Shown: in pieces, positions 4,132-26,152 of the stretch
Layout: every line of letters starts with the position of its first letter
Position numbering within the stretch: position 1 is the stretch's first letter
Source: Acidiphilium sp. CAG:727
Lineage (GTDB): Bacteria; Bacillota; Clostridia; Christensenellales; Borkfalkiaceae
Direction of reading: 5' to 3'
NCBI GenBank assembly: GCA_000437515.1
Contig: FR898416.1
Span: 1 to 32,583, forward strand
DNA length: 32,583 bases
The notes under the pieces: model-generated
What the model saw: the letters and a program-made list of their open reading frames with translations, nothing else
Databases searched by the model: none
Told to the model about the DNA's origin: nothing
Made by a program: the position numbers and the translations under genes

Positions 4132-4752
4132 ATGGATTCTTTTTACTCGGAAATCAAAGCAGAGGCGACTGACGAAACGATAATCGAACGTTCGAAGTTT
4201 ATCTGCCTTATAAAAAAAGTCGAAACCGAAGAAGAAGCCCGCGAAGTTTTGTCGGTCGTCAAAAAAAATCACCCGTTCGCCACGCACAATTGCTACGCTT
4301 TCATTCTGCGAAGCGGCGCGGCGAGATTTTCCGACGACGGAGAACCGCAGGGTACGGCGGGGCAACCTATGCTTGAAGCACTCAAAAACAACGGCTTATA
4401 CAACGTCATAGCCGTGGTTACGAGATATTTCGGCGGGATAAAACTCGGCGCAGGCGGTCTGGTAAGAGCCTATTCGGGCGCGGTATCGTCCGCAATAAGG
4501 CTTGCGGGCAAAATCGATTTCTACCCGTCTGACGTTTACGGAATTTCGTTTAACTACGATGCGTATTCCCACTTTCTGAAATTTACGCAAAACAACCCGA
4601 TAACCGTGCTGTCAACCGATTTTAGACAAAACGTACAGGTTAAAATCGCCGTTAAAAAGCCGAGCGGAAAAACCGTTGCCGCTATTAACGATTTACTTAT
4701 CGGTAAAGCCGAAATCGACAAAATCTCGGAAGGATATTACGCCTATGAATAA
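4132..4752 (+). CDS. yigZ: YigZ / IMPACT family (UPF0029) protein
   Basis: Contains ...IIERSKFICLIKKV..., HNCYAF, FSDDGEPQGTAGQPML and VVTRYFGGIKLGAGGLVRAYS, which are hallmark YigZ/IMPACT N-domain motifs. Confidence 0.88.
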   Translation: MDSFYSEIKAEATDETIIERSKFICLIKKVETEEEAREVLSVVKKNHPFATHNCYAFILRSGAARFSDDGEPQGTAGQPMLEALKNNGLYNVIAVVTRYFGGIKLGAGGLVRAYSGAVSSAIRLAGKIDFYPSDVYGISFNYDAYSHFLKFTQNNPITVLSTDFRQNVQVKIAVKKPSGKTVAAINDLLIGKAEIDKISEGYYAYE

Positions 4753-5368
4753 GATAACGGACATAAAACCGCAGGTGAAAAATCCGACGAGGTGCAGTAT
4801 CTATCTCGATAACGCCTTTTATTGCGGACTCGAACTCGAAACCGTAATGCGTTACCGACTTAAAATCGGAACGGAAATAGAAAAAGAGAAGTTGGACGAG
4901 ATACAAGCCGACAGCGAAAAATCGCGCGCTTTCGACAAAGCGTTGAATTTTATTTCACGCTCCAAAAAGACCGAGAAACAAGTGCGCGACTATCTTACGA
5001 CCAAAGGTTACCTGGACAAGACGATAGACGGGGTTATCGAAAAAATGGCTTCGTATTCGTTTATCGACGACGCGGACTATTCCGCCGACTACGCGAAAAG
5101 CGTTTCAAAAAACAAGGGCAAAAGACTGATCGCCATGGAATTGAAACGAAAGGGCGTATCCGACGAAGATATGTCGGCTGCTCTCGACAATTTAGGCGAC
5201 GAATTGCCTTCCGCCGTCGCCGTCGCCGAAAAATATTCCAAAAACAAAGAAAAAACACGCGAAAACTCGCTCAGATGTTATAAATTTTTACTGTCGAAAG
5301 GATTTTCGTACGATACCTCAAAAGAAGCGGTAGATAAGATATTTCAAAATGAAGACGATAATTTTTGA
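4745..5368 (+). CDS. recX: Recombination regulator RecX
   Basis: ORF 4676..5368 trimmed to ATG 4745, which overlaps the yigZ stop (ATGAATAA). MNKITDIKPQVKNPTRCSIYLDNAFYCGLELETVMRYRLKIG plus repeated helical modules (YLTTKGY, ELKRKGV, FLLSKGF) are typical of RecX. Confidence 0.8.
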   Translation: MNKITDIKPQVKNPTRCSIYLDNAFYCGLELETVMRYRLKIGTEIEKEKLDEIQADSEKSRAFDKALNFISRSKKTEKQVRDYLTTKGYLDKTIDGVIEKMASYSFIDDADYSADYAKSVSKNKGKRLIAMELKRKGVSDEDMSAALDNLGDELPSAVAVAEKYSKNKEKTRENSLRCYKFLLSKGFSYDTSKEAVDKIFQNEDDNF

Positions 5369-6690: not shown

Positions 6691-8136
6691 ATGCAGAAAA
6701 GAAATTTAACTCTTTTGACCGATTTATACGAACTCACGATGATGAACGGCTATTATCTTAAAGGCAAAAAAGACCAGATAGCCGTTTTCGACGTGTTTTT
6801 CAGACAAAACGAATTAATAACGTATTCGCTGTCGGCGGGGCTCGAACAAGCCGTAGACTACGTACTCGGCATCAACTTCGACGACGAAGAAATCGAATAC
6901 CTCCGTTCGCTCGGCATTTTTGACGACGGCTTTTTAGAGTATCTGAAAACCCTTAAATTCACGGGCGATATATACGCCGTTCCCGAAGGAACGGTCGTTT
7001 TCCCGGGAGAGCCGATATTCACCGTAAAAGCGCCCGTCATTCAGGCGCAACTTATCGAAGCCGCCGTCCTTAACATAATCAATCATCAGACCCTTATAGC
7101 GACGAAGGCGGCTAAAATAACCGCCGCAGCCAAGGGCGACAACGTTATGGAGTTCGGGCTTCGCCGCGCGCAGGGTCCCGACGCCGGTATATACGGCGCA
7201 AGGGCGGCGATTATAGGCGGATGTTCGTCGACGTCAAACGTCCTTGCGGGCAAGGAATTCGGCGTTAAAGTTGCCGGTACGCACGCCCACAGTTGGGTTA
7301 TGGACTTCCCGTCCGAATACGAAGCCTTCCGCGCTTACGCGGACGTATACCCCGACGCCACCCTGCTTCTGGTAGACACTTACGATACCTTAAAAAGCGG
7401 TATTCCCAACGCGATAAAGGTCTTTGACGAACTCAGGGCGAAAGGCAAAAAACCGCTCGGAATACGTATAGATTCGGGCGATCTGGCATACGCTACGAAG
7501 ATGGCGAGAAAAATGCTCGACGACGCCGGTTATCCCGACGCGATTATCTGCGCTTCCGGCGACCTGGACGAAAGACTCGTTCAGAGCCTTAAACAACAGG
7601 GCGCGAAAATAAACAGTTGGGGCATAGGCACAAAACTCATAACGAGCGCGGATATGCCTTCTCTCGGAGGAGTTTACAAACTCGCGGCGGTCGAAAAAGA
7701 CGGCAAACTTATTCCCAAGATCAAAGTTTCCGACAACACGGCAAAGATAACCAACCCCGGCTTCAAGACGGTTTACCGGATATACGACGGGGCTACGGGT
7801 AAAGCCGAAGCCGACCTGATCGCGCTTCGCGACGAAAAAATCGACTTTACGAAACCCCTTACCGTCTATCACCCGACCGAACGCTGGAAGTCTACGACTT
7901 TCACCGATTATACCGTTCGCGAACTACCCGTAAAAGTGGTCGAAAACGGAAAATCGGTTTACGACTTCCCAAAACTCGCCGATATATCGGCTTACGCCAA
8001 AAAAGACGTAGATACTTTCTGGGACGAATACAAACGTCTGGATCAGCCGCATATTTTCAAAGTCGATTTGTCGGACGGACTTTACGCCCTTAAATCGGAT
8101 ATGTTAAAGCGAGTAAGAAACGGAGAAATTCTTTAA
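6691..8136 (+). CDS. pncB: Nicotinate phosphoribosyltransferase
   Basis: The N-terminal LLTDLYELTMMNGY, AGTHAHSWVM and IRIDSGDL motifs are characteristic of NAPRTase, at a typical ~480 aa length. Confidence 0.9.
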   Translation: MQKRNLTLLTDLYELTMMNGYYLKGKKDQIAVFDVFFRQNELITYSLSAGLEQAVDYVLGINFDDEEIEYLRSLGIFDDGFLEYLKTLKFTGDIYAVPEGTVVFPGEPIFTVKAPVIQAQLIEAAVLNIINHQTLIATKAAKITAAAKGDNVMEFGLRRAQGPDAGIYGARAAIIGGCSSTSNVLAGKEFGVKVAGTHAHSWVMDFPSEYEAFRAYADVYPDATLLLVDTYDTLKSGIPNAIKVFDELRAKGKKPLGIRIDSGDLAYATKMARKMLDDAGYPDAIICASGDLDERLVQSLKQQGAKINSWGIGTKLITSADMPSLGGVYKLAAVEKDGKLIPKIKVSDNTAKITNPGFKTVYRIYDGATGKAEADLIALRDEKIDFTKPLTVYHPTERWKSTTFTDYTVRELPVKVVENGKSVYDFPKLADISAYAKKDVDTFWDEYKRLDQPHIFKVDLSDGLYALKSDMLKRVRNGEIL

Positions 8137-8139
8137 TCT

Positions 8140-8712
8140 ATGTGGTACGCGTTGTTGTTGGTCGGCGTGGTTTTCTTCGACCAATTTTCCAAAATCTTAG
8201 TTGCCGCGGTCGCGGGCTCTGCGGGAAATACGCCCGACGGCGGAGTTCATATCTGCTGGGTTATAGATAATTTCTTCGAGATTTCTTATTGCGAGAACAA
8301 CGAGGGAATGATGGGGCTGTTTCCCGAAGTGTCGAATATTATCTTCATCGTCGCTTCGATAATCATTCTTATAGGTATCTGCGTATATCTTGCCGTATCG
8401 AAACACCGCGGGAAATGGGTAAACACCGCTCTTATGCTCGTAATGGGCGGCGCGGTAGGCAATCTTATCGACCGCATAATTACCGAATACGTGAGAGATT
8501 TTATCCATATAATAATAAAAATCGGCGGGAAAGAGATATTCCCGTACGTTTTCAACGTAGCCGACGTCGCGTTGGTTATAGGGGCGATAATGCTCGTTAT
8601 TTATATTCTGTTTATCGGTAAAGACGCCGTTTTCAGACGTAAGAAAAAAGACGGCGACGATAAAACGGAAACCGCCGCCGACGCCGCGAAAACTACCGGA
8701 CCTCAAAAATGA
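8140..8712 (+). CDS. lspA: Lipoprotein signal peptidase (signal peptidase II)
   Basis: Has DQFSK, the NxGxxxG region (ENNEGMMGLF), GGAVGNLIDR and FNVADVALVIG, with 4 TM helices. The C-terminal tail is extended and basic. Confidence 0.88.
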   Translation: MWYALLLVGVVFFDQFSKILVAAVAGSAGNTPDGGVHICWVIDNFFEISYCENNEGMMGLFPEVSNIIFIVASIIILIGICVYLAVSKHRGKWVNTALMLVMGGAVGNLIDRIITEYVRDFIHIIIKIGGKEIFPYVFNVADVALVIGAIMLVIYILFIGKDAVFRRKKKDGDDKTETAADAAKTTGPQK

Positions 8713-9605
8713 AAACCGAAATTTTTACGGCGGAAACGCAGGAAAGGCTTGACGTTTATCTGACCGAAAAATTAAATAAAACCCGTTCTGCCGTAAAAAA
8801 ACTTATCGCCGACGGACTGATAACCGTCAACGGCAAGACCGAGAAAGCGGGTAAAGTCGTAAAATGCGGCGACGAGATTTCGGCGACGCTGCCCGACCCC
8901 GTTCCGCTTGACTTAACGCCCGAAAATCTGCCTTTGGATATAGTCTATCAGGACGAAGACGTGGCGGTAATCAATAAAGCGCAGGGGGTTACGGTTCACG
9001 CGGGCAACGGAACTCACGGTTCTACGCTCGTAAACGCGCTTTTATACCATTTAGACAGTTTAAGCGGCATAAACGGCGTGATACGCCCGGGTATAGTGCA
9101 TAGAATAGACAAAGACACGTCGGGTCTTTTAGTGGTTGCGAAAAACGACGCCTCGCACCTGTCGCTTTCCGATCAGATAAAGAACAAGACCTGCGCGAGG
9201 ATTTATTACGCGCTCGTCGAAGGCGTGGTTAAAACCGACAAGGGCGAAATAGAAACGTATATCGGCAGAAGCGATAAAAACCGCACCATGATGGCGGTTA
9301 CAGACCACGGACGTAAAGCGATTACCGATTACGAAACGGTAAAGAGATTTTCGTCGTACACGCTTATGCGTTTCAGCCTTAAAACGGGGCGTACGCACCA
9401 GATAAGAGTACATTGTAAATATATAGGGCATCCGATAGTGGGCGACCCCGTATACGGGTATAAAACGCAGAAATTCAAGTTAAACGGGCAATTGTTGCAC
9501 GCCGCAGAACTCGCTTTTAATCACCCCCGCACGGGCGAGCGTATGACGTTTACCGCTCCCTTGCCCGATTATTTCGAAGCGGTTCTCAAAAAACTCGAAA
9601 AATAA
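8709..9605 (+). CDS. rluD: RluA/RluD-family 23S rRNA pseudouridine synthase with an S4 domain
   Basis: Has an S4-like N-terminus (RLDVYLTEKL...), the catalytic HRIDKDTSGLLVVAKN, and GRTHQIRVH. There is an ATGA overlap with lspA, and lspA-rluD adjacency is classic in Firmicutes. Confidence 0.88.
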   Translation: MKTEIFTAETQERLDVYLTEKLNKTRSAVKKLIADGLITVNGKTEKAGKVVKCGDEISATLPDPVPLDLTPENLPLDIVYQDEDVAVINKAQGVTVHAGNGTHGSTLVNALLYHLDSLSGINGVIRPGIVHRIDKDTSGLLVVAKNDASHLSLSDQIKNKTCARIYYALVEGVVKTDKGEIETYIGRSDKNRTMMAVTDHGRKAITDYETVKRFSSYTLMRFSLKTGRTHQIRVHCKYIGHPIVGDPVYGYKTQKFKLNGQLLHAAELAFNHPRTGERMTFTAPLPDYFEAVLKKLEK

Positions 9606-9639
9606 AAGCCGCTACGTAGATTTAAGATTAAATTTTCAA

Positions 9640-9840
9640 CTCCGCGGTACCCCACCCTTCCGGGAGATGTTTCGCTCACGCTCAACATGACACTCAACAA
9701 GCACGTCATCGCGAGCGTAAGCGTGGCGATCCCCGCATTAAAAGTCGGAGTGGCTACATAGGCGGCGTACTCCAATCCTCGGGTTTGCCACGACCCGCAA
9801 GGGGTCTCGCAAAGACAGTTACGTCATCCTGTCAATAACG
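9640..9840. repeat. Modular interspersed intergenic repeat, copy A
   Basis: The 31-nt core acgtcatcgcgagcgtaagcgtggcgatccc (9703-9733) recurs at 12011-12040 with a 1-nt indel. The module cgtactccaatc (9766-9777) is the reverse complement of gattggagtacg at 12044-12055. Other GC-rich hairpin-prone modules are present (ttcgctcacgctcaacatgaca; ccacgacccgcaaggggtctcgcaaagac). Confidence 0.8.
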
Positions 9841-9849
9841 ATATAAAGC

Positions 9850-9893
9850 AACCCCGAAAGCGAAAATTTTTCGCTTTCGGGGTTTTGCTTTTT
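9850..9893. terminator. Bidirectional rho-independent terminator between convergent rluD and veg
   Basis: Near-perfect palindrome ccccgaaagcgaaaa/ttttcgctttcgggg (9852-9882), followed by ttttgcttttt on the + strand. Confidence 0.85.
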
Positions 9894-10137
9894 ATATCCT
9901 GTTCAATTTTTTTAACCGGACGTTACCGCACATTACCTCGGCGTAAGAAAAACTCGTTTTACCTTTGAAGTCGCCGTCGGGACGGACGGTAAACAACGCG
10001 GGGTAAACGCTCGTTAAAGTTCCGCTGTAGGTTACGAATTTATTTCTGCCGAGCGCGACTTGAACGCTCACCTCTTCGCCGCGGCACGCCGCAATCAATC
10101 TTTTTACTTTACTTATATCGCCCGTCGATTTTATCAT
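9892..10137 (-). CDS. veg: Veg family protein (biofilm formation stimulator Veg, DUF1021)
   Basis: 81 aa. DISKVKRLI...GRNKFVTYSGTLTSVYPALFTV...SFSYAEVMCGNVRL aligns by eye with B. subtilis Veg (DIKRSL...[22 protein letters not shown]...SYSYADILTETVEL). Confidence 0.85.
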   Translation of the reverse strand: MIKSTGDISKVKRLIAACRGEEVSVQVALGRNKFVTYSGTLTSVYPALFTVRPDGDFKGKTSFSYAEVMCGNVRLKKLNRI

Positions 10138-10168
10138 ACGAGCGTATTATCGACGACTTATACCCGGA

Positions 10169-10699
10169 TTATACGTCGTAATCGTCGCGTTCGTCTTCGT
10201 CCTCTTCTTCGTCTTCTTCGCTGTACTCGCCGATGTCGGTAGGATATTCGAAGTCGTCATCGTCGTCGTGAACGCCGTCGTCGTAGTAATCGTCGTCCTG
10301 CTCTTCTTCGTCGTCAAAAAGTTCTTTGGCTTCTTCCTCTTCGAGTTGCGAAAGCGAAAGCATCGCTTCTTCGTCGTCGCCCTGATTGCTTATCGCTTCT
10401 TTTTCGTCCTCGTCGAGATAGTTTCTCCACTCTTCGTCGTTGTCGGGATCGTCCTCGCTCGTTTCTTCGCGTTCCTTTTCGGCGCGAGCCTCTCTGCACT
10501 CCTCGCACATCTCTTCGCCGTCGTCGATAAAGTTACGTTTGCAGATCGGGCAAAGGACCTGATCCTGATCGTCGTCGCCGTCGAGCGCGGCAAATTTTAT
10601 CTGCGGTCCGATTTTGAGTTCAGCCTTACAAACGTCGCAGTACGGCTCGCCTTCGAGCATGTAGTTAAGGTCGCACCTCGGACATTTTACGTATTTCAT
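10169..10699 (-). CDS. Double zinc-ribbon protein with an extremely acidic C-terminal tail; function unknown
   Basis: ORF 10169..10783 trimmed to ATG 10699, preceded by GGGAGA. Two Cys4 units are present (CPRC...CDVC and CPIC...CEEC). About 100 residues follow that are dominated by D/E (DDEEEQDDDYYDDGVHDDDDDFEY...EEDEEEDEDERDDYDV). Confidence 0.7.
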   Translation of the reverse strand: MKYVKCPRCDLNYMLEGEPYCDVCKAELKIGPQIKFAALDGDDDQDQVLCPICKRNFIDDGEEMCEECREARAEKEREETSEDDPDNDEEWRNYLDEDEKEAISNQGDDEEAMLSLSQLEEEEAKELFDDEEEQDDDYYDDGVHDDDDDFEYPTDIGEYSEEDEEEDEDERDDYDV

Positions 10700-10885
10700 T
10701 TTATTCTCCCTGTCGCCCGAAAAAGTTCGGGCTTTATATAATATATATCCGAATTTTAATTTTATGTGCAAAATAACACGCACAAAAAATACGCATAAAC
10801 CGCTTTCGGCGATTCACGCGCATATATTATAGCATAATATTTTTATTTGTAAACTGTTTTATATAACCAAAACGAATTTTTTCAG

Positions 10886-11185
10886 TTATTTTTTCAAAAA
10901 ATCTATCAAAGATTTCTTTTTATCCGAAGATAAATTTTCAAGCAAACGTTCTATCTCCCGATTTTCGTCATAATCGTAAAAATCGTCGCTAAAAAACCTT
11001 GCCACCGAAAAATTACAGATTTCTAACACCTGAAATAAGTTTTCTATCGACAGTTGAAAACGCCCGCGTTCAACCATACCAATGTATTGCGCGCTTTTAC
11101 CCATTCTCAAACTTAATTCTCTTGCCGATAAATTAGCCTTATTCCTGACGTAACCGAGTCTTACTAAAAACTCTTTATAATCCAT
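10886..11185 (-). CDS. XRE-family helix-turn-helix transcriptional regulator
   Basis: LSARELSLRMGKSAQYIGMVERGRFQLSIENLFQVLEI is a Cro/C1-type HTH. The local composition is very AT-rich. Confidence 0.8.
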   Translation of the reverse strand: MDYKEFLVRLGYVRNKANLSARELSLRMGKSAQYIGMVERGRFQLSIENLFQVLEICNFSVARFFSDDFYDYDENREIERLLENLSSDKKKSLIDFLKK

Positions 11186-11284
11186 ATTCTTCCACCAAGT
11201 ATTTTATATCATAATTATAAGCCCGTATTTCGTAACGCTATGAAATGCAAAAACATTAAAATATTCTATTTATATTAAAAATGA

Positions 11285-11314
11285 TTACACAATGACAATA
11301 ATTTGTGCTATAAT
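11285..11314 (+). promoter_or_regulatory. Putative extended -10 promoter of the SLOG gene
   Basis: TTACAC (11285-11290), 18-nt spacer, TGcTATAAT (11306-11314). It lies ~40 nt upstream of AAGGAG-ATG 11354, in the divergent region shared with the XRE gene. Confidence 0.5.
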
Positions 11315-11353
11315 TATGTATATATGTAACTATTAAGGAGTTTATTTGTAAAA

Positions 11354-11824
11354 ATGAGCAGAAGAAAACATCTGCGTTGTAGTTTTTTCGGACATTATGA
11401 AGACGAAATAAGCGAAGAAACAAAACTTAAAATAAAAGAAAAAATCGTCGAGTTAATCAACGACGGTTTCGACATATTTATGATAGGAAATAAAGGTACA
11501 TTCACGGATATATGTTACCAAATTATAACCGACTTACAAAAAATCTATCCTCACGTAAAGCGGATAATTTGCATGTACAGCCCTTGGGAGAATTTAGAAA
11601 TAAAACGACCGAAAGAATTCCCGTATCCGGAATACGAAAAAATAATATACTTATCGCCGGCATATCAAGAACAACGAAGTAAAACCATCTACCGCAACCG
11701 GGAAACCGTAGATATAAGCGACTACGTCGTTTTTTACGTTCAGGATCGCCCTATGAGCCGAACGTACGAAACTTTAGAATATGCTATAAACTTCGATATT
11801 CCTCACTGCAATCTGTCGGAATAG
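11354..11824 (+). CDS. SLOG-fold protein, DUF1273 / YpsA-like
   Basis: Has CSFFGH near the N-terminus, FMIGNKGTFTDICYQIITDLQKIYPHVK, and the C-terminal RNRETVDISDYVVFYV. This matches the DUF1273 pattern (FTGHR ... GxxGxD ... RNRxMVDxSD). Confidence 0.65.
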   Translation: MSRRKHLRCSFFGHYEDEISEETKLKIKEKIVELINDGFDIFMIGNKGTFTDICYQIITDLQKIYPHVKRIICMYSPWENLEIKRPKEFPYPEYEKIIYLSPAYQEQRSKTIYRNRETVDISDYVVFYVQDRPMSRTYETLEYAINFDIPHCNLSE

Positions 11825-11869
11825 TTCATAACACGTGATTTTATACACTATCTTTTATACAGACTTGCC

Positions 11870-12130
11870 CGCGCAGCCGCTCCGCCGTCTATTGCGGGGT
11901 AAATGTCCCCGCTGAAACGGGGAAAATGTTGCGAAGCGACAAAAGGGGGGGGCGACACTGCCTAAGGTTGCCGCAGTCGCTTTGCTCCTTCGCAATGACA
12001 TGCTTAATAAACGTCATCGCGAGCGAAGCGTGGCGATCCCGAAGATTGGAGTACGGGCGAATATACTTGCCCTTGCCTTCTCTTTGCAGAGAAGGTGGCG
12101 GCGTAGCCGACGGATGAGTTCTCGGAAGTG
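11870..12130. repeat. Modular interspersed intergenic repeat, copy B
   Basis: Shares the 30-nt core acgtcatcgcgagcgaagcgtggcgatccc (12011-12040) and the gattggagtacg module with copy A. Additional self-complementary modules are present (gcgaagcgac / gtcgctttgc; ccccgctgaaacgggg 11908-11923). ORFs across it translate to the low-complexity strings ...LRNDM... and ...VIASEAWRS... Confidence 0.8.
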
Positions 12131-21822: not shown

Positions 21823-22788
21823 TTATTGATTTTTAATTTCTTCGTCTTTGTCGAATACTAAAATTCTGCTTTTGACCTTATTCGGTATAGGGCGACGTTT
21901 TTTATCCAACTCTTCGTATTTGTCGAGCGCTAAAAATTTATATTTTTCACTCTCTGCGTAGCAGGCAATCCGTTCGCCCGCTCCGCACGTATATACCGTT
22001 TCTACGGTCTTGAAATCTTTAGTTACCCGAATTATCTCAACGTCAAAGAGATCCCAGAAATAAATAAATTTTTCGCTCTCATACATGTTCCAATATGCCT
22101 TACCCAGCATATTGACATAATTTATAATATCATTTTCGTTGACTCTGTAAATACGCTTTCCGGGAACGTGTAAATAATTACCTTTTCCTGCAATATGAGA
22201 GAGCAGTTCATTACTTTGAAATATTTTTTCAATAAGATTCAATTTACCGTCTTCAAGATTGTACCGACCATAAATGGTATAAGACGTTTTATGAGAGTTG
22301 TCTGCCGGTTCAAAACAGGACTCAAACAAATAAATATCCCCGCCCGAACACCTGTGTAAAGAATAAAACCGCCTGTGATTATCGTCAATATTGCAGCCGT
22401 AATTATAGTTTGTTATTTCTCTGTTCTTCACGTCTATCACGGCAAGCGAATTGCCCCACAACGAAGACGAACTACCCATAACGTAGATTTTCTCTTCAAT
22501 ATCGTCGTAACAAACGTTTCCATCAATAACGTGATACTTAAATCTTTTAACGATCGAATAATCGTTTATATTCAAAAGCCAACACTCGTCATTGTTTGTT
22601 TCGAGAAATAATAAACCGTATTTATGAATGAACAACATATTGCCGGCATACCTGAAGCCTTTTATCTGAGTTTGTACCGTAGCGGAGTTCATATCTATCA
22701 CACTCGTTCTATGCCCTATCGAATACAATTTCTGCGATTCTTCGTCTATACACATAAAATACGGCGCGCCGATTTTTATAGTTTTCAT
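21823..22788 (-). CDS. Predicted cytoplasmic 7-bladed beta-propeller-like protein, paralog A (candidate immunity protein)
   Basis: ORF 21823..22803 trimmed to ATG 22788, preceded by GGAGA. There is no signal peptide. It is strongly similar to the 23784..24773 product; the N-terminal ~105 aa are roughly 60% identical by eye (e.g. GAPY.M..D...QKLY..G.RT.VID.N; LFIHK.G..FL.TNNDECWLLNI.DYS.V.RFKY). Hydrophobic strand motifs recur at a ~45-aa period. Confidence 0.7.
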   Translation of the reverse strand: MKTIKIGAPYFMCIDEESQKLYSIGHRTSVIDMNSATVQTQIKGFRYAGNMLFIHKYGLLFLETNNDECWLLNINDYSIVKRFKYHVIDGNVCYDDIEEKIYVMGSSSSLWGNSLAVIDVKNREITNYNYGCNIDDNHRRFYSLHRCSGGDIYLFESCFEPADNSHKTSYTIYGRYNLEDGKLNLIEKIFQSNELLSHIAGKGNYLHVPGKRIYRVNENDIINYVNMLGKAYWNMYESEKFIYFWDLFDVEIIRVTKDFKTVETVYTCGAGERIACYAESEKYKFLALDKYEELDKKRRPIPNKVKSRILVFDKDEEIKNQ

Positions 22789-22799
22789 ATTATCTCCGT

Positions 22800-23708
22800 T
22801 CAATCGTTAAAATCGTAATCGGTTAAATCTTCGCTCGATTTCGCTACCACAAGCCTGTCCCATGAGCCTATATATCTGTTACCGTCGAATTCGCAATAAT
22901 CGTCGAGATAGGGCATAACGGCAATTTCACGCTTTTCTTGAAAATCGTTTGAAAATTCATACACGGCTCGACCCGTTCCGATAACAAATCGATCGCCGTA
23001 TTTCTTGACAAATTTAATATATTCCTTCTTGAAAAGACTTTTCCCCTTAATTACCGTATCGCCGTACAAAATCGCTCCGGCATCACAAAATCCGCCGTCA
23101 AAACCTTCAACACCGAGAACGAACACACCGTTCCACTTTTTGATAACTTCTTTATTGATAAGTTTACCGTCAACGAAAGAATACCTGCCGTAAACGGTTT
23201 CATCCGTCAACTTCTTTCGTTTACCCTTTTTAGTAACGCAAAAACTTTCGATAAGATAAAAATCTTCTCCTTCAAATCTCATCAATTCGTAATCGGTACG
23301 GGCTATCATTTCGTCATAACGTGTTTCGAAAGCAAATCTTTTAACAGAAAAAGTTTGTAATTCAATAACCGCAACCACTTCTTTTTTATAATCGTATCCC
23401 CATACGCAAATCTCGTTTTTAGTTCCGTTTATTACTATACGACCGTCTTTTACTCCGGTTTTAACAGAAGCGACGAGTGCAAAATCTTTGAGATTGAATA
23501 CTTTTAAGTCGCCTACCGTATTTAACGCGTAAAGTTTATCGCCCGGATAATCTATACTTGCGTAAGAAAGATAACTGAACCCGCCTATACGCGTAATCTT
23601 ACGCATGGTTTTCAAATCGAAAACGTGAATCGATACCCCTACGCACAACAAGCGTGAATATTTTTCGTCTATCAATATCTGATAAACTCTCATTTTCAAG
23701 TTCTTCAT
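22800..23708 (-). CDS. Predicted beta-propeller-like protein, divergent paralog B (candidate immunity protein)
   Basis: 302 aa, no signal peptide. It shares blade-like motifs with A and C (KLYALNTVGDLKVFNLKDF; ETVYGRYSFVDGKLINKE versus TIYGRYNLEDGKLNLIE). It lies 11 nt upstream of paralog A. Confidence 0.65.
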   Translation of the reverse strand: MKNLKMRVYQILIDEKYSRLLCVGVSIHVFDLKTMRKITRIGGFSYLSYASIDYPGDKLYALNTVGDLKVFNLKDFALVASVKTGVKDGRIVINGTKNEICVWGYDYKKEVVAVIELQTFSVKRFAFETRYDEMIARTDYELMRFEGEDFYLIESFCVTKKGKRKKLTDETVYGRYSFVDGKLINKEVIKKWNGVFVLGVEGFDGGFCDAGAILYGDTVIKGKSLFKKEYIKFVKKYGDRFVIGTGRAVYEFSNDFQEKREIAVMPYLDDYCEFDGNRYIGSWDRLVVAKSSEDLTDYDFND

Positions 23709-23783
23709 GTCATTTACGCCGTATAATTAACTATTGATATAATGATTTTCTGTGTTTTTAACATATTCAAAACCTTAGTTTCA

Positions 23784-24773
23784 TTACCGCCCTTTCATGC
23801 ATATTGCGGAAGATTTCATCTCTTCGTTTTTATCAAAAACCATTATTCTGCTTTTGGTAACGTTATACTGCAACACTCCGCGTTCGTTATACTCGTCGCA
23901 TTTGGAAACTGCGACAAACCTGTATTTTTCGCTTTCCGCATAAGACGTCACTTTTTCTCCGAATCCTTTCGTGAAAACCGTTTCAACGCTGTCGAAATCG
24001 ACGGTGGTACGAATTATTTTATCGCTGAACCATTCCCAAAAATAAATATATTTATCCGAAATAAAAAATCTAAAATACAATTCTCCGATTTTAGCGCCGT
24101 AATCTATAACGTCGTTTTCTTTAACTCTATACATAAATCCTTTTATCGGACTTAACATATAATCGTCGTTCCCTTTCGCAAATACGATATCTTCGTTGCC
24201 GGTATATATAGTGTCGATAAGCTGTAATCCGTCTTTAGATAACCGATATTTGCCGTAAATCGTTTCTACGTTTTCGGTCGACGTCGGAAGTATGTCGTAA
24301 GAGCAATTTAGCAGATACAAATCTTCGCCCGCGCACTTATGTGGCGAATAAAAGGATAACCTTCGCCTTTTTTCGTCTATAATACGCGGAAAACAATAAT
24401 TTTCGATGGTCAACGTCTTCAAATCTATAACAGACACTCCGTTATCGATCCCTATCGTACCGAAAACGTAAATTTTATCCGAGACTTCATCAAAACACAC
24501 GTAAGGATCTAAAATACGATACTTAAATCTGTGTACCACGGAATAATCGTCGATATTCAACAACCAACACTCGTCGTTGTTGGTCGCAAGAAATATCCAC
24601 CCGAATTTATGGATAAACAAAATTTTTATAATATATCTGAACCCCGTAAGCCTTTTGCAGATCGTCAACGTATTAAGATCAATCACGTTTGTTCTCGTAC
24701 CGACGGCATATAATTTTTGATTTATCCGGTCTACGTACATAGAATATGGCGCGCCCGCCACAATATCTTTCAT
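23784..24773 (-). CDS. Predicted beta-propeller-like protein, paralog C (candidate cognate immunity protein)
   Basis: ATG 24773 sits 1 nt after the stop of the nuclease ORF (TAAgATG), and a G-rich SD lies inside the toxin 3' end. 329 aa, no signal peptide. About 7 blade-like segments are visible (e.g. KLYAVGTRTNVIDLNTLT; KIYVFGTIGIDNGVSVIDLKTLT; SRIMVFDKN). Confidence 0.7.
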   Translation of the reverse strand: MKDIVAGAPYSMYVDRINQKLYAVGTRTNVIDLNTLTICKRLTGFRYIIKILFIHKFGWIFLATNNDECWLLNIDDYSVVHRFKYRILDPYVCFDEVSDKIYVFGTIGIDNGVSVIDLKTLTIENYCFPRIIDEKRRRLSFYSPHKCAGEDLYLLNCSYDILPTSTENVETIYGKYRLSKDGLQLIDTIYTGNEDIVFAKGNDDYMLSPIKGFMYRVKENDVIDYGAKIGELYFRFFISDKYIYFWEWFSDKIIRTTVDFDSVETVFTKGFGEKVTSYAESEKYRFVAVSKCDEYNERGVLQYNVTKSRIMVFDKNEEMKSSAICMKGR

Positions 24774-24774
24774 C

Positions 24775-25377
24775 TTAAGCCCCCGTATTTATTACCGTTA
24801 AAATAATTTTTAACGAAGCCAGCACTCGAAAAATTTTTGTTTCATTACCGCTTGCAGGTTCTAAGCACATATTAACTGCCTTAAAGTAATCCTTGTTGTG
24901 CAACCCCTGGTGAAAACGCTCCTTAACTGCTACGAGATTTCTTTCATCCGTCCATACATTCATATATTTCTCCACAATCTCACGCGCCCTATTTGCTCGC
25001 GAATCTACTTTCGCAATAATATGATGAATGTTTGGTTTCGCCGATTTACTTTTTCTTCTCCAAATACTAAGCACGCCACTTTTACAAGCCTTAAAAAACT
25101 CCTGTATACTTCTACGTATTTCTTGTATTGCCGTTTTTAGCGCCGGGTAACACAAAATAATAAATGCAATACATAATACAGCGGAAGCGGCAATAATTGC
25201 TTTTACGCCGATTGCAATACCGCCGATAACGACCACCGCAATGCGGCCGTCGGGGTCGTAGTATTTTACGGGGTTGTTGTTCGCATAGGCGAAAAGGTTA
25301 TAAAAGCAATAAATCGTTTCATTAAGATACCGCCTTATAGTGATATGGTTTATTTTACCATATACCGTATCTCTTAT
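24775..25377 (-). pseudogene. Orphan polymorphic-toxin C-terminal cassette: RHS/YD core-end remnant + hydrophobic linker + xHH (AHH-like) HNH/EndoVII nuclease domain
   Basis: The ORF track calls 24775..25236 (GTG start). The frame stays open upstream to the stop at 25378-25380 and reads IRDTVYGKINHITIRRYLNETIYCFYNLFAYANNNPVKYYDPDGRIAVVVIGG... NLFAYANNNPVKYYDPDGR matches the conserved RHS core terminus (LYAYxxNNPVxxxDPxG). There is no ATG and no SD in this extension. The C-terminal part, NIHHIIAKVDSRANRAREIV...NVWTDERNLVAVKERFHQGLHNKDYFKAV, fits the xHH...N...H..H..Y pattern of AHH/LHH-type nuclease toxins. Confidence 0.65.
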
Positions 25378-25404
25378 TCAAGCGATTATCAAAAATTTTT
25401 ACAT

Positions 25405-25431
25405 AAAAAAAACCGACGAAAATTCGTCGGT
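25405..25431 (-). terminator. Strong rho-independent terminator after the CvpA-like gene
   Basis: accgacgaaaattcgtcggt (25412-25431) forms an 8-bp stem. On the minus strand it is followed by a T-run (A-run 25405-25411 on +). Confidence 0.85.
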
Positions 25432-25450
25432 CGTAAAATTTACGTTTCGT

Positions 25451-26152
25451 TTATTTTCGCAAATCGTCGAAAATCTTTTTGAAGGTCTTGTTAAGCGGGT
25501 TATACTCGTAAATACATCCGCCGATAACCGATGCCGAAAAATCTTCGTGCAGGGTGGTAAGTACGGGCTCGCAGAAATTATTCACGACGTCTTTAGCAAC
25601 GCTCTCTTCGGTTTCGCCTTTGGTGGCGACGTTACTATATACCCCGTCTTCGTTGAGCGCGTGCACCGCGCCGAACAGACACACGACCACGCCGATATAG
25701 ACGGCGAGATTGAACACAAGCCCCAACACGTTATCCGCTATTTTTACCCACCTTATCTTTTTTATACAGGTAAGCACGGGTGAGAAAAACAGCGACACGA
25801 TTAACTTTATCAGATAATACGTTATGACGTAACCGAGTACGAAAAACAGTAATCCGAACGGCAGATACGCGATAAGTTTCGCGACAAAACGATATTGCGC
25901 GTCGTTGAGTACAGCCGCCGCGTCGGAAGACACTTCGCCGAAAAATTTCCGCACGCCGTCAGACATATAAGCGAGCCACCCCTGACCGTCCATAAGCATA
26001 TAGACGCCGAACGCAAGAGCCGCCCCGCCGCCGAGCGCGATAACGGTACGCAAAATGCCGAACACGAAATTACGGGAAAACCCGAATTTCACGCTCGCCC
26101 AGATTACGCATATTAAGATGGCAAGTAAAAATATATCGACTAAAAAAAACAT
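25451..26152 (-). CDS. CvpA-like (colicin V production family) integral membrane protein
   Basis: The N-terminus MFFLVDIFLLAILICVIWASVKFGFSRNF... and 4-5 TM helices resemble CvpA-family proteins. The assignment rests on pattern recognition only. Confidence 0.45.
   Translation of the reverse strand: MFFLVDIFLLAILICVIWASVKFGFSRNFVFGILRTVIALGGGAALAFGVYMLMDGQGWLAYMSDGVRKFFGEVSSDAAAVLNDAQYRFVAKLIAYLPFGLLFFVLGYVITYYLIKLIVSLFFSPVLTCIKKIRWVKIADNVLGLVFNLAVYIGVVVCLFGAVHALNEDGVYSNVATKGETEESVAKDVVNNFCEPVLTTLHEDFSASVIGGCIYEYNPLNKTFKKIFDDLRK

Follow-up and report, generated by a model that had tools for sequence, protein, structure and literature searches.

A probable polyimmunity array of propeller-like proteins retained behind a deleted RHS-AHH toxin gene in a gut Clostridia genome

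YD-repeat toxins of the Gram-positive WapA/WapI type share a common layout of core, tip and immunity gene. In polymorphic toxin systems, an RHS core carries a variable tip after a DPxG motif and the gene directly 3' of the toxin encodes the immunity protein specific for that tip; tandem co-oriented immunity paralogs, arrays that vary between strains and fossils of displaced tips belong to the same picture (PMC3482391), and tandem arrays made of a single immunity family are known as homogeneous polyimmunity loci (Zhang et al. 2012, PMC3482391). Here, we describe a locus that shares each of these properties, located on contig FR898416.1 of Acidiphilium sp. CAG:727 (assembly GCA_000437515.1), a genome placed by GTDB in the family Borkfalkiaceae of the Clostridia. 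The window, by which we mean the whole stretch of DNA analyzed (32,583 nucleotides), contains three consecutive related genes, named C, B and A in their order of transcription, behind the remains of a toxin gene with an AHH nuclease domain. We consider it probable that C-B-A is an array of one cognate and two orphan immunity genes. While systems of this type are familiar, the immunity family to which the three genes would belong is new as a sequence family, with no model in Pfam, NCBIfam, PADLOC or PHROG.

A described parallel is PefE of Proteus mirabilis, which is predicted to fold as a beta-propeller, has variable regions of a modular nature and has been shown experimentally to neutralize PefD, a Tox-GHH2 nuclease of the HNH superfamily (PMC5714391). 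In both loci the immunity gene lies immediately 3' of the gene for a nuclease toxin of the HNH/EndoVII superfamily and encodes a predicted beta-propeller, a second divergent copy is present in the genome, and modular or mosaic regions vary between strains. The variable regions of PefE lie on one face (PMC5714391) and resemble the central segment of paralog A whose replacement is described below. The two systems differ in delivery, PefD being carried by a Gram-negative type VI secretion system via PAAR, whereas the toxin considered here is an RHS/YD protein with a Sec signal from a Clostridia-type genome. They also differ in that immunity by PefE is experimental and that of our family predicted; the family is set beside PefE through its published description. 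A preliminary description of this DNA, made from the sequence alone, had called a propeller an unusually large inhibitor for an HNH-type nuclease. The precedent of PefE/PefD makes it less unusual than claimed, and a propeller fold class for such immunity is therefore uncommon but not new (PMC5714391). The immunity families listed for Tox-AHH toxins (Imm-PA2201, SUKH, SuFu, Imm-ank, Imm11, Imm20, Imm23, Imm24 and Imm43; PMC3482391) include no propeller and none that matches C, B or A, and a further difference is that the toxin is dead at the window locus.

The array and the fossil that it encloses are laid out as follows:

24773-23784, minus strand: paralog C, 329 amino acids, predicted cognate immunity protein of the local AHH tip (variant 1)
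23714..23788, minus strand: toxin-tail fossil, the last 24 codons plus stop codon of a second AHH variant (GNETKVLNMLKTQKIIISIVNYTA and stop), occupying the C-B spacer
23708-22800, minus strand: paralog B, 302 amino acids, predicted to confer immunity to AHH variant 2 and orphaned in this genome
22788-21823, minus strand: paralog A, 321 amino acids from its ATG, predicted orphan immunity protein

The compared relatives come from "uncultured Clostridia" metagenome-assembled genomes (MAGs) and from human-gut metagenome contigs, numbered L001 to L031. Two of them, L005 and L006, carry at the same chromosomal site an intact toxin gene immediately 5' of a C-type gene, in the order glnS, a 233-amino-acid membrane protein, the 750-amino-acid toxin, proteins of 329, 302 and 318 amino acids, and ecfA1-ecfA2-ecfT-truA-rplM-rpsI. 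The L005 toxin has a signal-peptide-like N terminus, RHS repeats (RHS_repeat, 39 bits versus a cutoff of 22), the DPDGR motif within the core end NPVKYYDPDGR, a very hydrophobic helix and an AHH domain; the window keeps just the core-end motif and the tip. The first gene behind an intact toxin is of the C type when the toxin bears tip variant 1 (L005/L006) and of the B type when it bears variant 2 (L018, L019 and L020), an A-like protein of 317 amino acids follows another tip variant (L001/L002), and a B-like protein of 295 amino acids follows the variant 3 toxin (L021-L025), whose RHS core is ~46% identical. The spacers between toxin and paralog after intact RHS-AHH genes measure 1 to 5 nucleotides (L005, L001, L018-L020 and L021-L024).

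The identity of the tips predicts that of the paralogs behind them, with a Pearson r of 0.98 over 10 pairs from 5 toxin types, in contrast to an r of 0.16 between RHS-core identity and downstream-paralog identity for the same pairs. L001 and L018 illustrate this, as their cores are 93% identical, their tips 49% and their paralogs 22%. A second line of evidence is the fossil in the C-B spacer, since 23 of its 24 residues are those of the tail of the intact variant 2 toxin of L018, which is the direct 5' neighbor of a B ortholog, and the distance from toxin stop to B start is five nucleotides both there and in the window. A toxin tail ahead of B indicates that B once stood behind its own toxin tip, which was later displaced by recombination. 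The proposal of the preliminary description, namely tandem diverged immunity paralogs of a new family next to an HNH-type nuclease, is supported by this adjacency, by the co-variation with the tips, by the fossil and by the structural matches given below.

Paralogs C and A are 47% identical over their full length (E of 8e-104), and B is more divergent (25 to 28% identity to C and A, confined to the N-terminal ~180 amino acids, with E of 3e-13 and 1e-15). C starts 1 nucleotide past the toxin stop codon (TAAgATG), and the spacers within the array are 75 nucleotides (C-B) and 11 nucleotides (B-A). An alternative TTG start at 22803 would extend A to 326 amino acids, but the ATG at 22788, preceded by GGAG, is the likely start. 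In all this the preliminary description was accurate, including the coordinates of the three related reading frames, the trimmed 321-amino-acid start of A, the closeness of A and C and the stronger divergence of B, the TAAgATG junction, and the shared runs LFIHK.G..FL.TNNDECWLLNI.DYS.V.RFKY, YAESEKY.F and T.YGRY...DGKL. The YG[RK]Y motif contains Y173, one of the three residues invariant among 15 family members; its glycine is kept in 13 of the 15, and L183 and E187 further along are nearly invariant. As also reported there, none of the three proteins has a signal peptide or membrane segment (maximum Kyte-Doolittle 19-mer of ≤1.32), which would place them in the compartment where the DNase acts. 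The array is thus laid out as a homogeneous polyimmunity locus, being tandem, co-oriented, closely spaced and strain variable, with only the 75-nucleotide toxin fossil between C and B.

The arrays differ between L001, L005, L018, L019 and L007. Behind its variant 2 toxin, L018 has the order B-C-B-A (8001-11862), with two B copies 99% identical to each other and a C copy that has an A-type N terminus (MKTIKIGA), pointing to recent duplication and recombination inside the array. In L021 (8945-11372, also in L024 and L025), the RHS-AHH/295-amino-acid pair is followed by an orphan RHS tip with a DPTGNG core end and a glycine-zipper-like membrane domain, 3' of which lie three tandem membrane paralogs of ~160 amino acids (34 to 39% identical). 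These genes probably make up a second toxin cassette, directed at membranes and equipped with an immunity array of its own, and the layout matches the canonical architecture of polymorphic toxin loci. In L007 (1-9900) and L008, at the site corresponding to window positions ~23350-25400, a mobile element has been inserted into the array, with genes for a large serine recombinase, Mob_Pre, Schlafen/AlbA_2-HATPase, a PLD-SNF2 helicase and an Eco57I/MmeI-type methylase. Toxin and C are gone there, B is cut to 187 amino acids and A alone is intact. Variation of the kinds seen in L018, the L021 type and L007 is typical of the plasticity of polymorphic toxin and polyimmunity loci (PMC3482391).

The gene ahead of C is no longer a toxin gene in the window, where the following parts of it are left:

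24775..25335, minus strand: surviving 3' part of the RHS toxin gene, its own frame open, which encodes the core-end motif FAYANNNPVKYYDPDGR, a helix of strong hydrophobicity and the AHH domain
24847..25050, minus strand: AHH nuclease domain of the HNH/EndoVII superfamily (PF14412, E of 7e-9, 36.1 bits versus a cutoff of 22.3)
25266..25322, minus strand: 5' stub of the RHS toxin gene, with the original ATG (25322) and the signal-peptide start MKRFIAFI, 18 codons to an out-of-frame stop; equivalent to L005 6682-6706
25298..25303, minus strand: deletion junction at a TTATAA microhomology, where 1,699 bp of RHS core (L005 6707-8405) are gone

The nuclease open reading frame (ORF) to which the preliminary description had coupled C (24775-25236, 153 amino acids from a mechanically assigned GTG start) turned out to be no intact small gene but the C-terminal tip of an RHS/YD-repeat toxin, that is, the 3' remnant of a deleted 750-amino-acid RHS-AHH gene. 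Its frame runs on 5' of the GTG into FAYANNNPVKYYDPDGR, the RHS/YD core-end motif. We therefore rejected the 153-amino-acid ORF as a working small toxin, given that the frame extends into the core-end motif, a signal peptide is missing and the true start is out of frame. All the AHH motifs (IHH...N...H...H...Y) are found in the tip, with I rather than A or G as the first residue. Between 25303 and 22483, a stretch that includes the toxin remnant, the window is 95.6% identical to L005 at the DNA level. The AHH part is intact in sequence, yet the deletion frameshift separates it from its start codon and signal peptide, which makes the toxin gene of the window a pseudogene and, as far as can be read from the DNA, the array an immunity-only one.

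This state is widespread. At least nine further metagenome contigs lack a toxin gene before C (L003, L004, L017 and L026-L031), and the deletion junction is common to all eight of the remnants that were aligned (that of L004 is not among them). Every array gene lying wholly on those toxin-less contigs is a complete ORF, and no internal stops were found in C, B or A across the compared contigs. The ratio of nonsynonymous to synonymous substitution rates (dN/dS) ranged from 0.12 to 0.76 for the three genes, mostly 0.2 to 0.4, pairs of toxin-less contigs included, all calculated on small substitution counts. By these ratios, C, B and A are under purifying selection. The toxin stump has decayed more in L017 and L026, with an internal stop and a change from IHH to IHY at the active site.

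Paralog A has a mosaic structure. Compared with the allele of a sister strain, residues ~100 to 250 (window ~22483-22032) have been replaced, with 33 to 40% identity in this segment and ~100% at both ends, which makes the central region a candidate specificity surface. A bolder idea, which we hold as speculative and rather unlikely, is that the propeller is a modular specificity platform whose central blades are swapped by recombination, retargeting immunity to new AHH variants, and that the solitary distant homologs described below are stand-alone acquired immunity genes guarding nonproducers across species. If true, the acquired interbacterial defense islands of Bacteroidales would have in this family a Gram-positive counterpart.

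Neither C, B nor A gave anything significant in Pfam, NCBIfam, PADLOC, PHROG or a PDB sequence search, so that the known enzyme family that the preliminary description had named as a contrary outcome was not found in these databases. Against the described immunity families (Pfam Imm1-74, SUKH, SuFu, PA2201 and others, and NCBIfam), the three proteins and nine full-length relatives stayed below every threshold. Propeller families were likewise reached only below threshold (families TIGR02276, NF052280 and PF21783), with 12.9 bits versus 27.85 for the YVTN repeat and 11.9 versus 400 for YncE, as was Kelch_6 (15 bits versus 25.3). Collections of plasmids and phages contained no homolog of the paralogs, and a query from the A/C clade had zero matches in species-representative genomes. 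Word-indexed homolog searches were shallow (3, 28 and 7 matches), and the distant clade discussed below was reached through an exhaustive hidden Markov model (HMM) search of 1.84 billion representatives, which recovered 63 proteins at an E of ≤1e-3, a rare and patchy family. They comprise full-length relatives of ~290 to 335 amino acids with no Pfam domain, and long multi-repeat YncE, cytochrome-D1, lactonase, NHL or WD40 propellers that match only positions ~10 to 125 of the profile (E of 5e-10 to 1e-3).

Beta-propellers are built of blades of four antiparallel strands, 4 to 10 of them set radially around a closed ring. Structure prediction by AlphaFold2 gave a mean predicted local distance difference test (pLDDT) of 67 and a predicted TM-score (pTM) of 0.69 for C, and 62.5 and 0.65 for B. 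In both models residues 1 to 195 form a confident all-beta region of four 4-strand units; pLDDT falls below 50 at residues 195 to 270 of C, the last ~45 residues being at about 65 to 79, and at residues 197 to 302 of B. Foldseek against the PDB returned only beta-propellers for both proteins (probability 1.00, E of about 2.6e-7 to 1e-5), among them the YVTN protein 1l0q (first for C), BtuG (8bmz), YncE (3vh0) and WD40 proteins, superposed over ~160 to 200 residues at 3 to 5 Å with TM-scores of 0.35 to 0.45. YVTN, YncE and BtuG proteins are found at the surface or in the periplasm, whereas C, B and A have no export signal. Self-comparison with hhalign found one significant repeat, residues 11 to 37 against ~94 to 125 (blade 1 and blade 3; probability 84%, E of 8e-6), and hhalign of sub-alignments detected no repeat in the C-terminal half. 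The models thus support a YVTN/WD40-like propeller for the N-terminal ~60% alone (the first ~195 residues). The propeller suggested by the preliminary description holds for that part, whereas its ~7 repeats at a ~45-amino-acid period, with the seven blades or closed ring that they would imply, were not recovered, hhalign giving a single repeat pair and AlphaFold2 confident blades only at residues 1 to 195.

Several observations weigh against the immunity interpretation. The very low confidence of the C-terminal third in both AlphaFold2 models is one of them, and the five toxin types from which the correlation of 0.98 is drawn are not phylogenetically independent. The commonest toxin-less genotype, represented by L017 (6344-6934) and L026 (~4344-4940), has the junction of the window but a different AHH tip, which points to the tip having been exchanged, relative to the window, in a recombination event. 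This dead tip, which precedes C, is 71% identical to that of L001 and 58% to that of L005; being L001-like, it indicates that the rule by which the first downstream gene is the cognate one is not absolute. The exchange was plausibly tolerated because an A-type paralog was already present in the array. Finally, the distant clade comprises seven loci (L009, which equals L010, and L011-L016), each with a single family gene or a pair of them surrounded by unrelated housekeeping genes. No trace of AHH or RHS was found there by a six-frame HMM search with the --max option over ~8 to 10 kb where the contig extends that far, so the family is not always linked to toxins and may have had another ancestral role. 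The preliminary description had made its proposal depend on homologs elsewhere being adjacent to toxin domains: they are in the toxin-linked clade, and none is in the distant one, to which the adverse outcome is confined.

In the distant clade, L009 has a tandem pair of family genes following MarR and two ABC-exporter genes, and L011-L016 have single family genes in Clostridia MAGs from rabbit and deer gut. Other neighbors include a HAD gene with BipA, GNAT and a gene of the uridine kinase family. No partner gene is conserved across the clade; an ORF of ~128 amino acids and of no known family is common to L011 (7606-7995) and L014 (1243-1626) only, where it is 64% identical and lies directly 5' of the family member, overlapping it or 3 nucleotides away. 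This ORF may encode a partner, or it may be one more orphan immunity gene. These loci, together with the presence of the DNA-bound YncE of Escherichia coli among the fold matches, are what favors a different primary role, for example that of a YncE-like nucleic-acid-binding or scaffold propeller, with the link to toxins arising by secondary recruitment or through a shared insertion hot spot. We consider this improbable. The genes that flank distant members vary from one genome to the next, as would be expected of orphan insertions more than of a conserved pathway. The family is also rare and patchily distributed, and in the toxin-linked clade a chance neighborhood would not account for anything as specific as the adjacency, the spacing of 1 to 5 nucleotides, the co-variation and the tail fossil.

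Another possibility is that the paralogs do not inhibit the toxin but assist the short RHS shell in its structure or export, as a gate, plug or adaptor comparable to the TcB propeller of Tc toxins or the NHL propeller of teneurins, or serve as chaperones for the hydrophobic tip. The RHS/YD shells of Tc toxins associate with beta-propeller domains (PMC3482391), the RHS protein of this locus, at 750 amino acids, is unusually small and has no propeller of its own, and toxin and paralog are translationally coupled. It is nevertheless very improbable, as the paralog varies with the tip and not with the RHS core, the paralogs have no export signal and the toxin does, several paralog copies accompany a single RHS gene, and purifying selection on the paralogs persists after the deletion of the shell. 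Least probable of all is an unrelated defense or sensor module, anti-phage or similar, riding on the same low-GC island (0.37-0.38 for the toxin/paralog block versus about 0.43-0.50 in the flanks), for although the mobile element of L007, with its serine recombinase and restriction-like genes, sits at the same site, the proteins have no PADLOC or PHROG match and no enzymatic or NTPase domain, phage and plasmid records hold no homolog, and the RHS-AHH link persists across lineages whose cores are only ~46% identical.

Returning to the immunity interpretation, C, B and A would be cytoplasmic immunity proteins, each binding and blocking one variant of the AHH DNase tip of a small secreted RHS/YD-repeat protein used strain against strain in this lineage of gut Clostridia. 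The ancestral operon would have consisted of a promoter, the RHS-AHH toxin gene, the translationally coupled cognate gene C and then the orphans B and A, left over after recombination displaced earlier toxin tips. A producer cell would export the RHS protein via the Sec pathway, and the tip, which comprises the hydrophobic helix plus the AHH DNase, would be freed after DPDGR and enter a neighboring cell, in which the matching cytoplasmic propeller would bind the ~90-amino-acid nuclease and block it. In the window, the 1.7-kb deletion would have killed the toxin and spared the promoter and the three immunity genes, presumably still transcribed from the old promoter. Such a cell would have lost its attack and be expected to resist at least three of the AHH variants in the population.

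The likely limits of the transcription unit are marked by three features:

25411..25432, minus strand: terminator-like hairpin (9-bp stem, T tract) at the end of the upstream 233-amino-acid membrane-protein gene
25352..25381, minus strand: promoter-like site by consensus match, TTGAAT-18-TAAAAT with TG, ~30 nucleotides 5' of the original RHS start codon
21783..21818, minus strand: strong hairpin terminator (16-bp stem, T runs on both strands) closing the array ahead of ecfA

Judging from the sequence, the toxin/immunity transcription unit is bounded on its 5' side by the first hairpin, and the promoter-like site could still be driving the three paralogs. An Rfam scan of the window returned zero RNA features. 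Between glnS and the toxin locus, the window also encodes the multi-pass membrane protein of 233 amino acids mentioned above (25451-26152, minus strand), which has no Pfam or NCBIfam match and could either belong to the normal core genome or assist the toxin as an accessory factor. A 230-amino-acid ORF occupies the equivalent position in the L021 lineage. Elsewhere in the window, a second low-GC patch (10886-11824; 0.374 over 11001-12000) contains a 99-amino-acid ORF of XRE-type helix-turn-helix-like character (minus strand) and a divergent one of 156 amino acids (plus strand), and may be another small acquired module. Nearby (10169-10783, minus strand), an ORF of 204 amino acids combines a CxxC pair of zinc-ribbon-like character at its N terminus with a tail that is rich in D and E and extremely acidic.

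All in all, the three genes probably guard a gut bacterium against the DNA-cutting toxins of its own relatives. They add a previously unannotated family to the catalogue of toxin immunity and would represent a second, independent propeller-type inhibitor of an HNH-superfamily DNase. Human-gut metagenomes offer here a natural experiment, in which a single lineage has, at a single site, toxin-plus genotypes that differ in their tips, a number of immunity repertoires and a toxin-minus, immunity-plus state that is widespread. The loss of attack with kept defense, and the evolution of immunity specificity, are thereby made testable by a few cloned genes.

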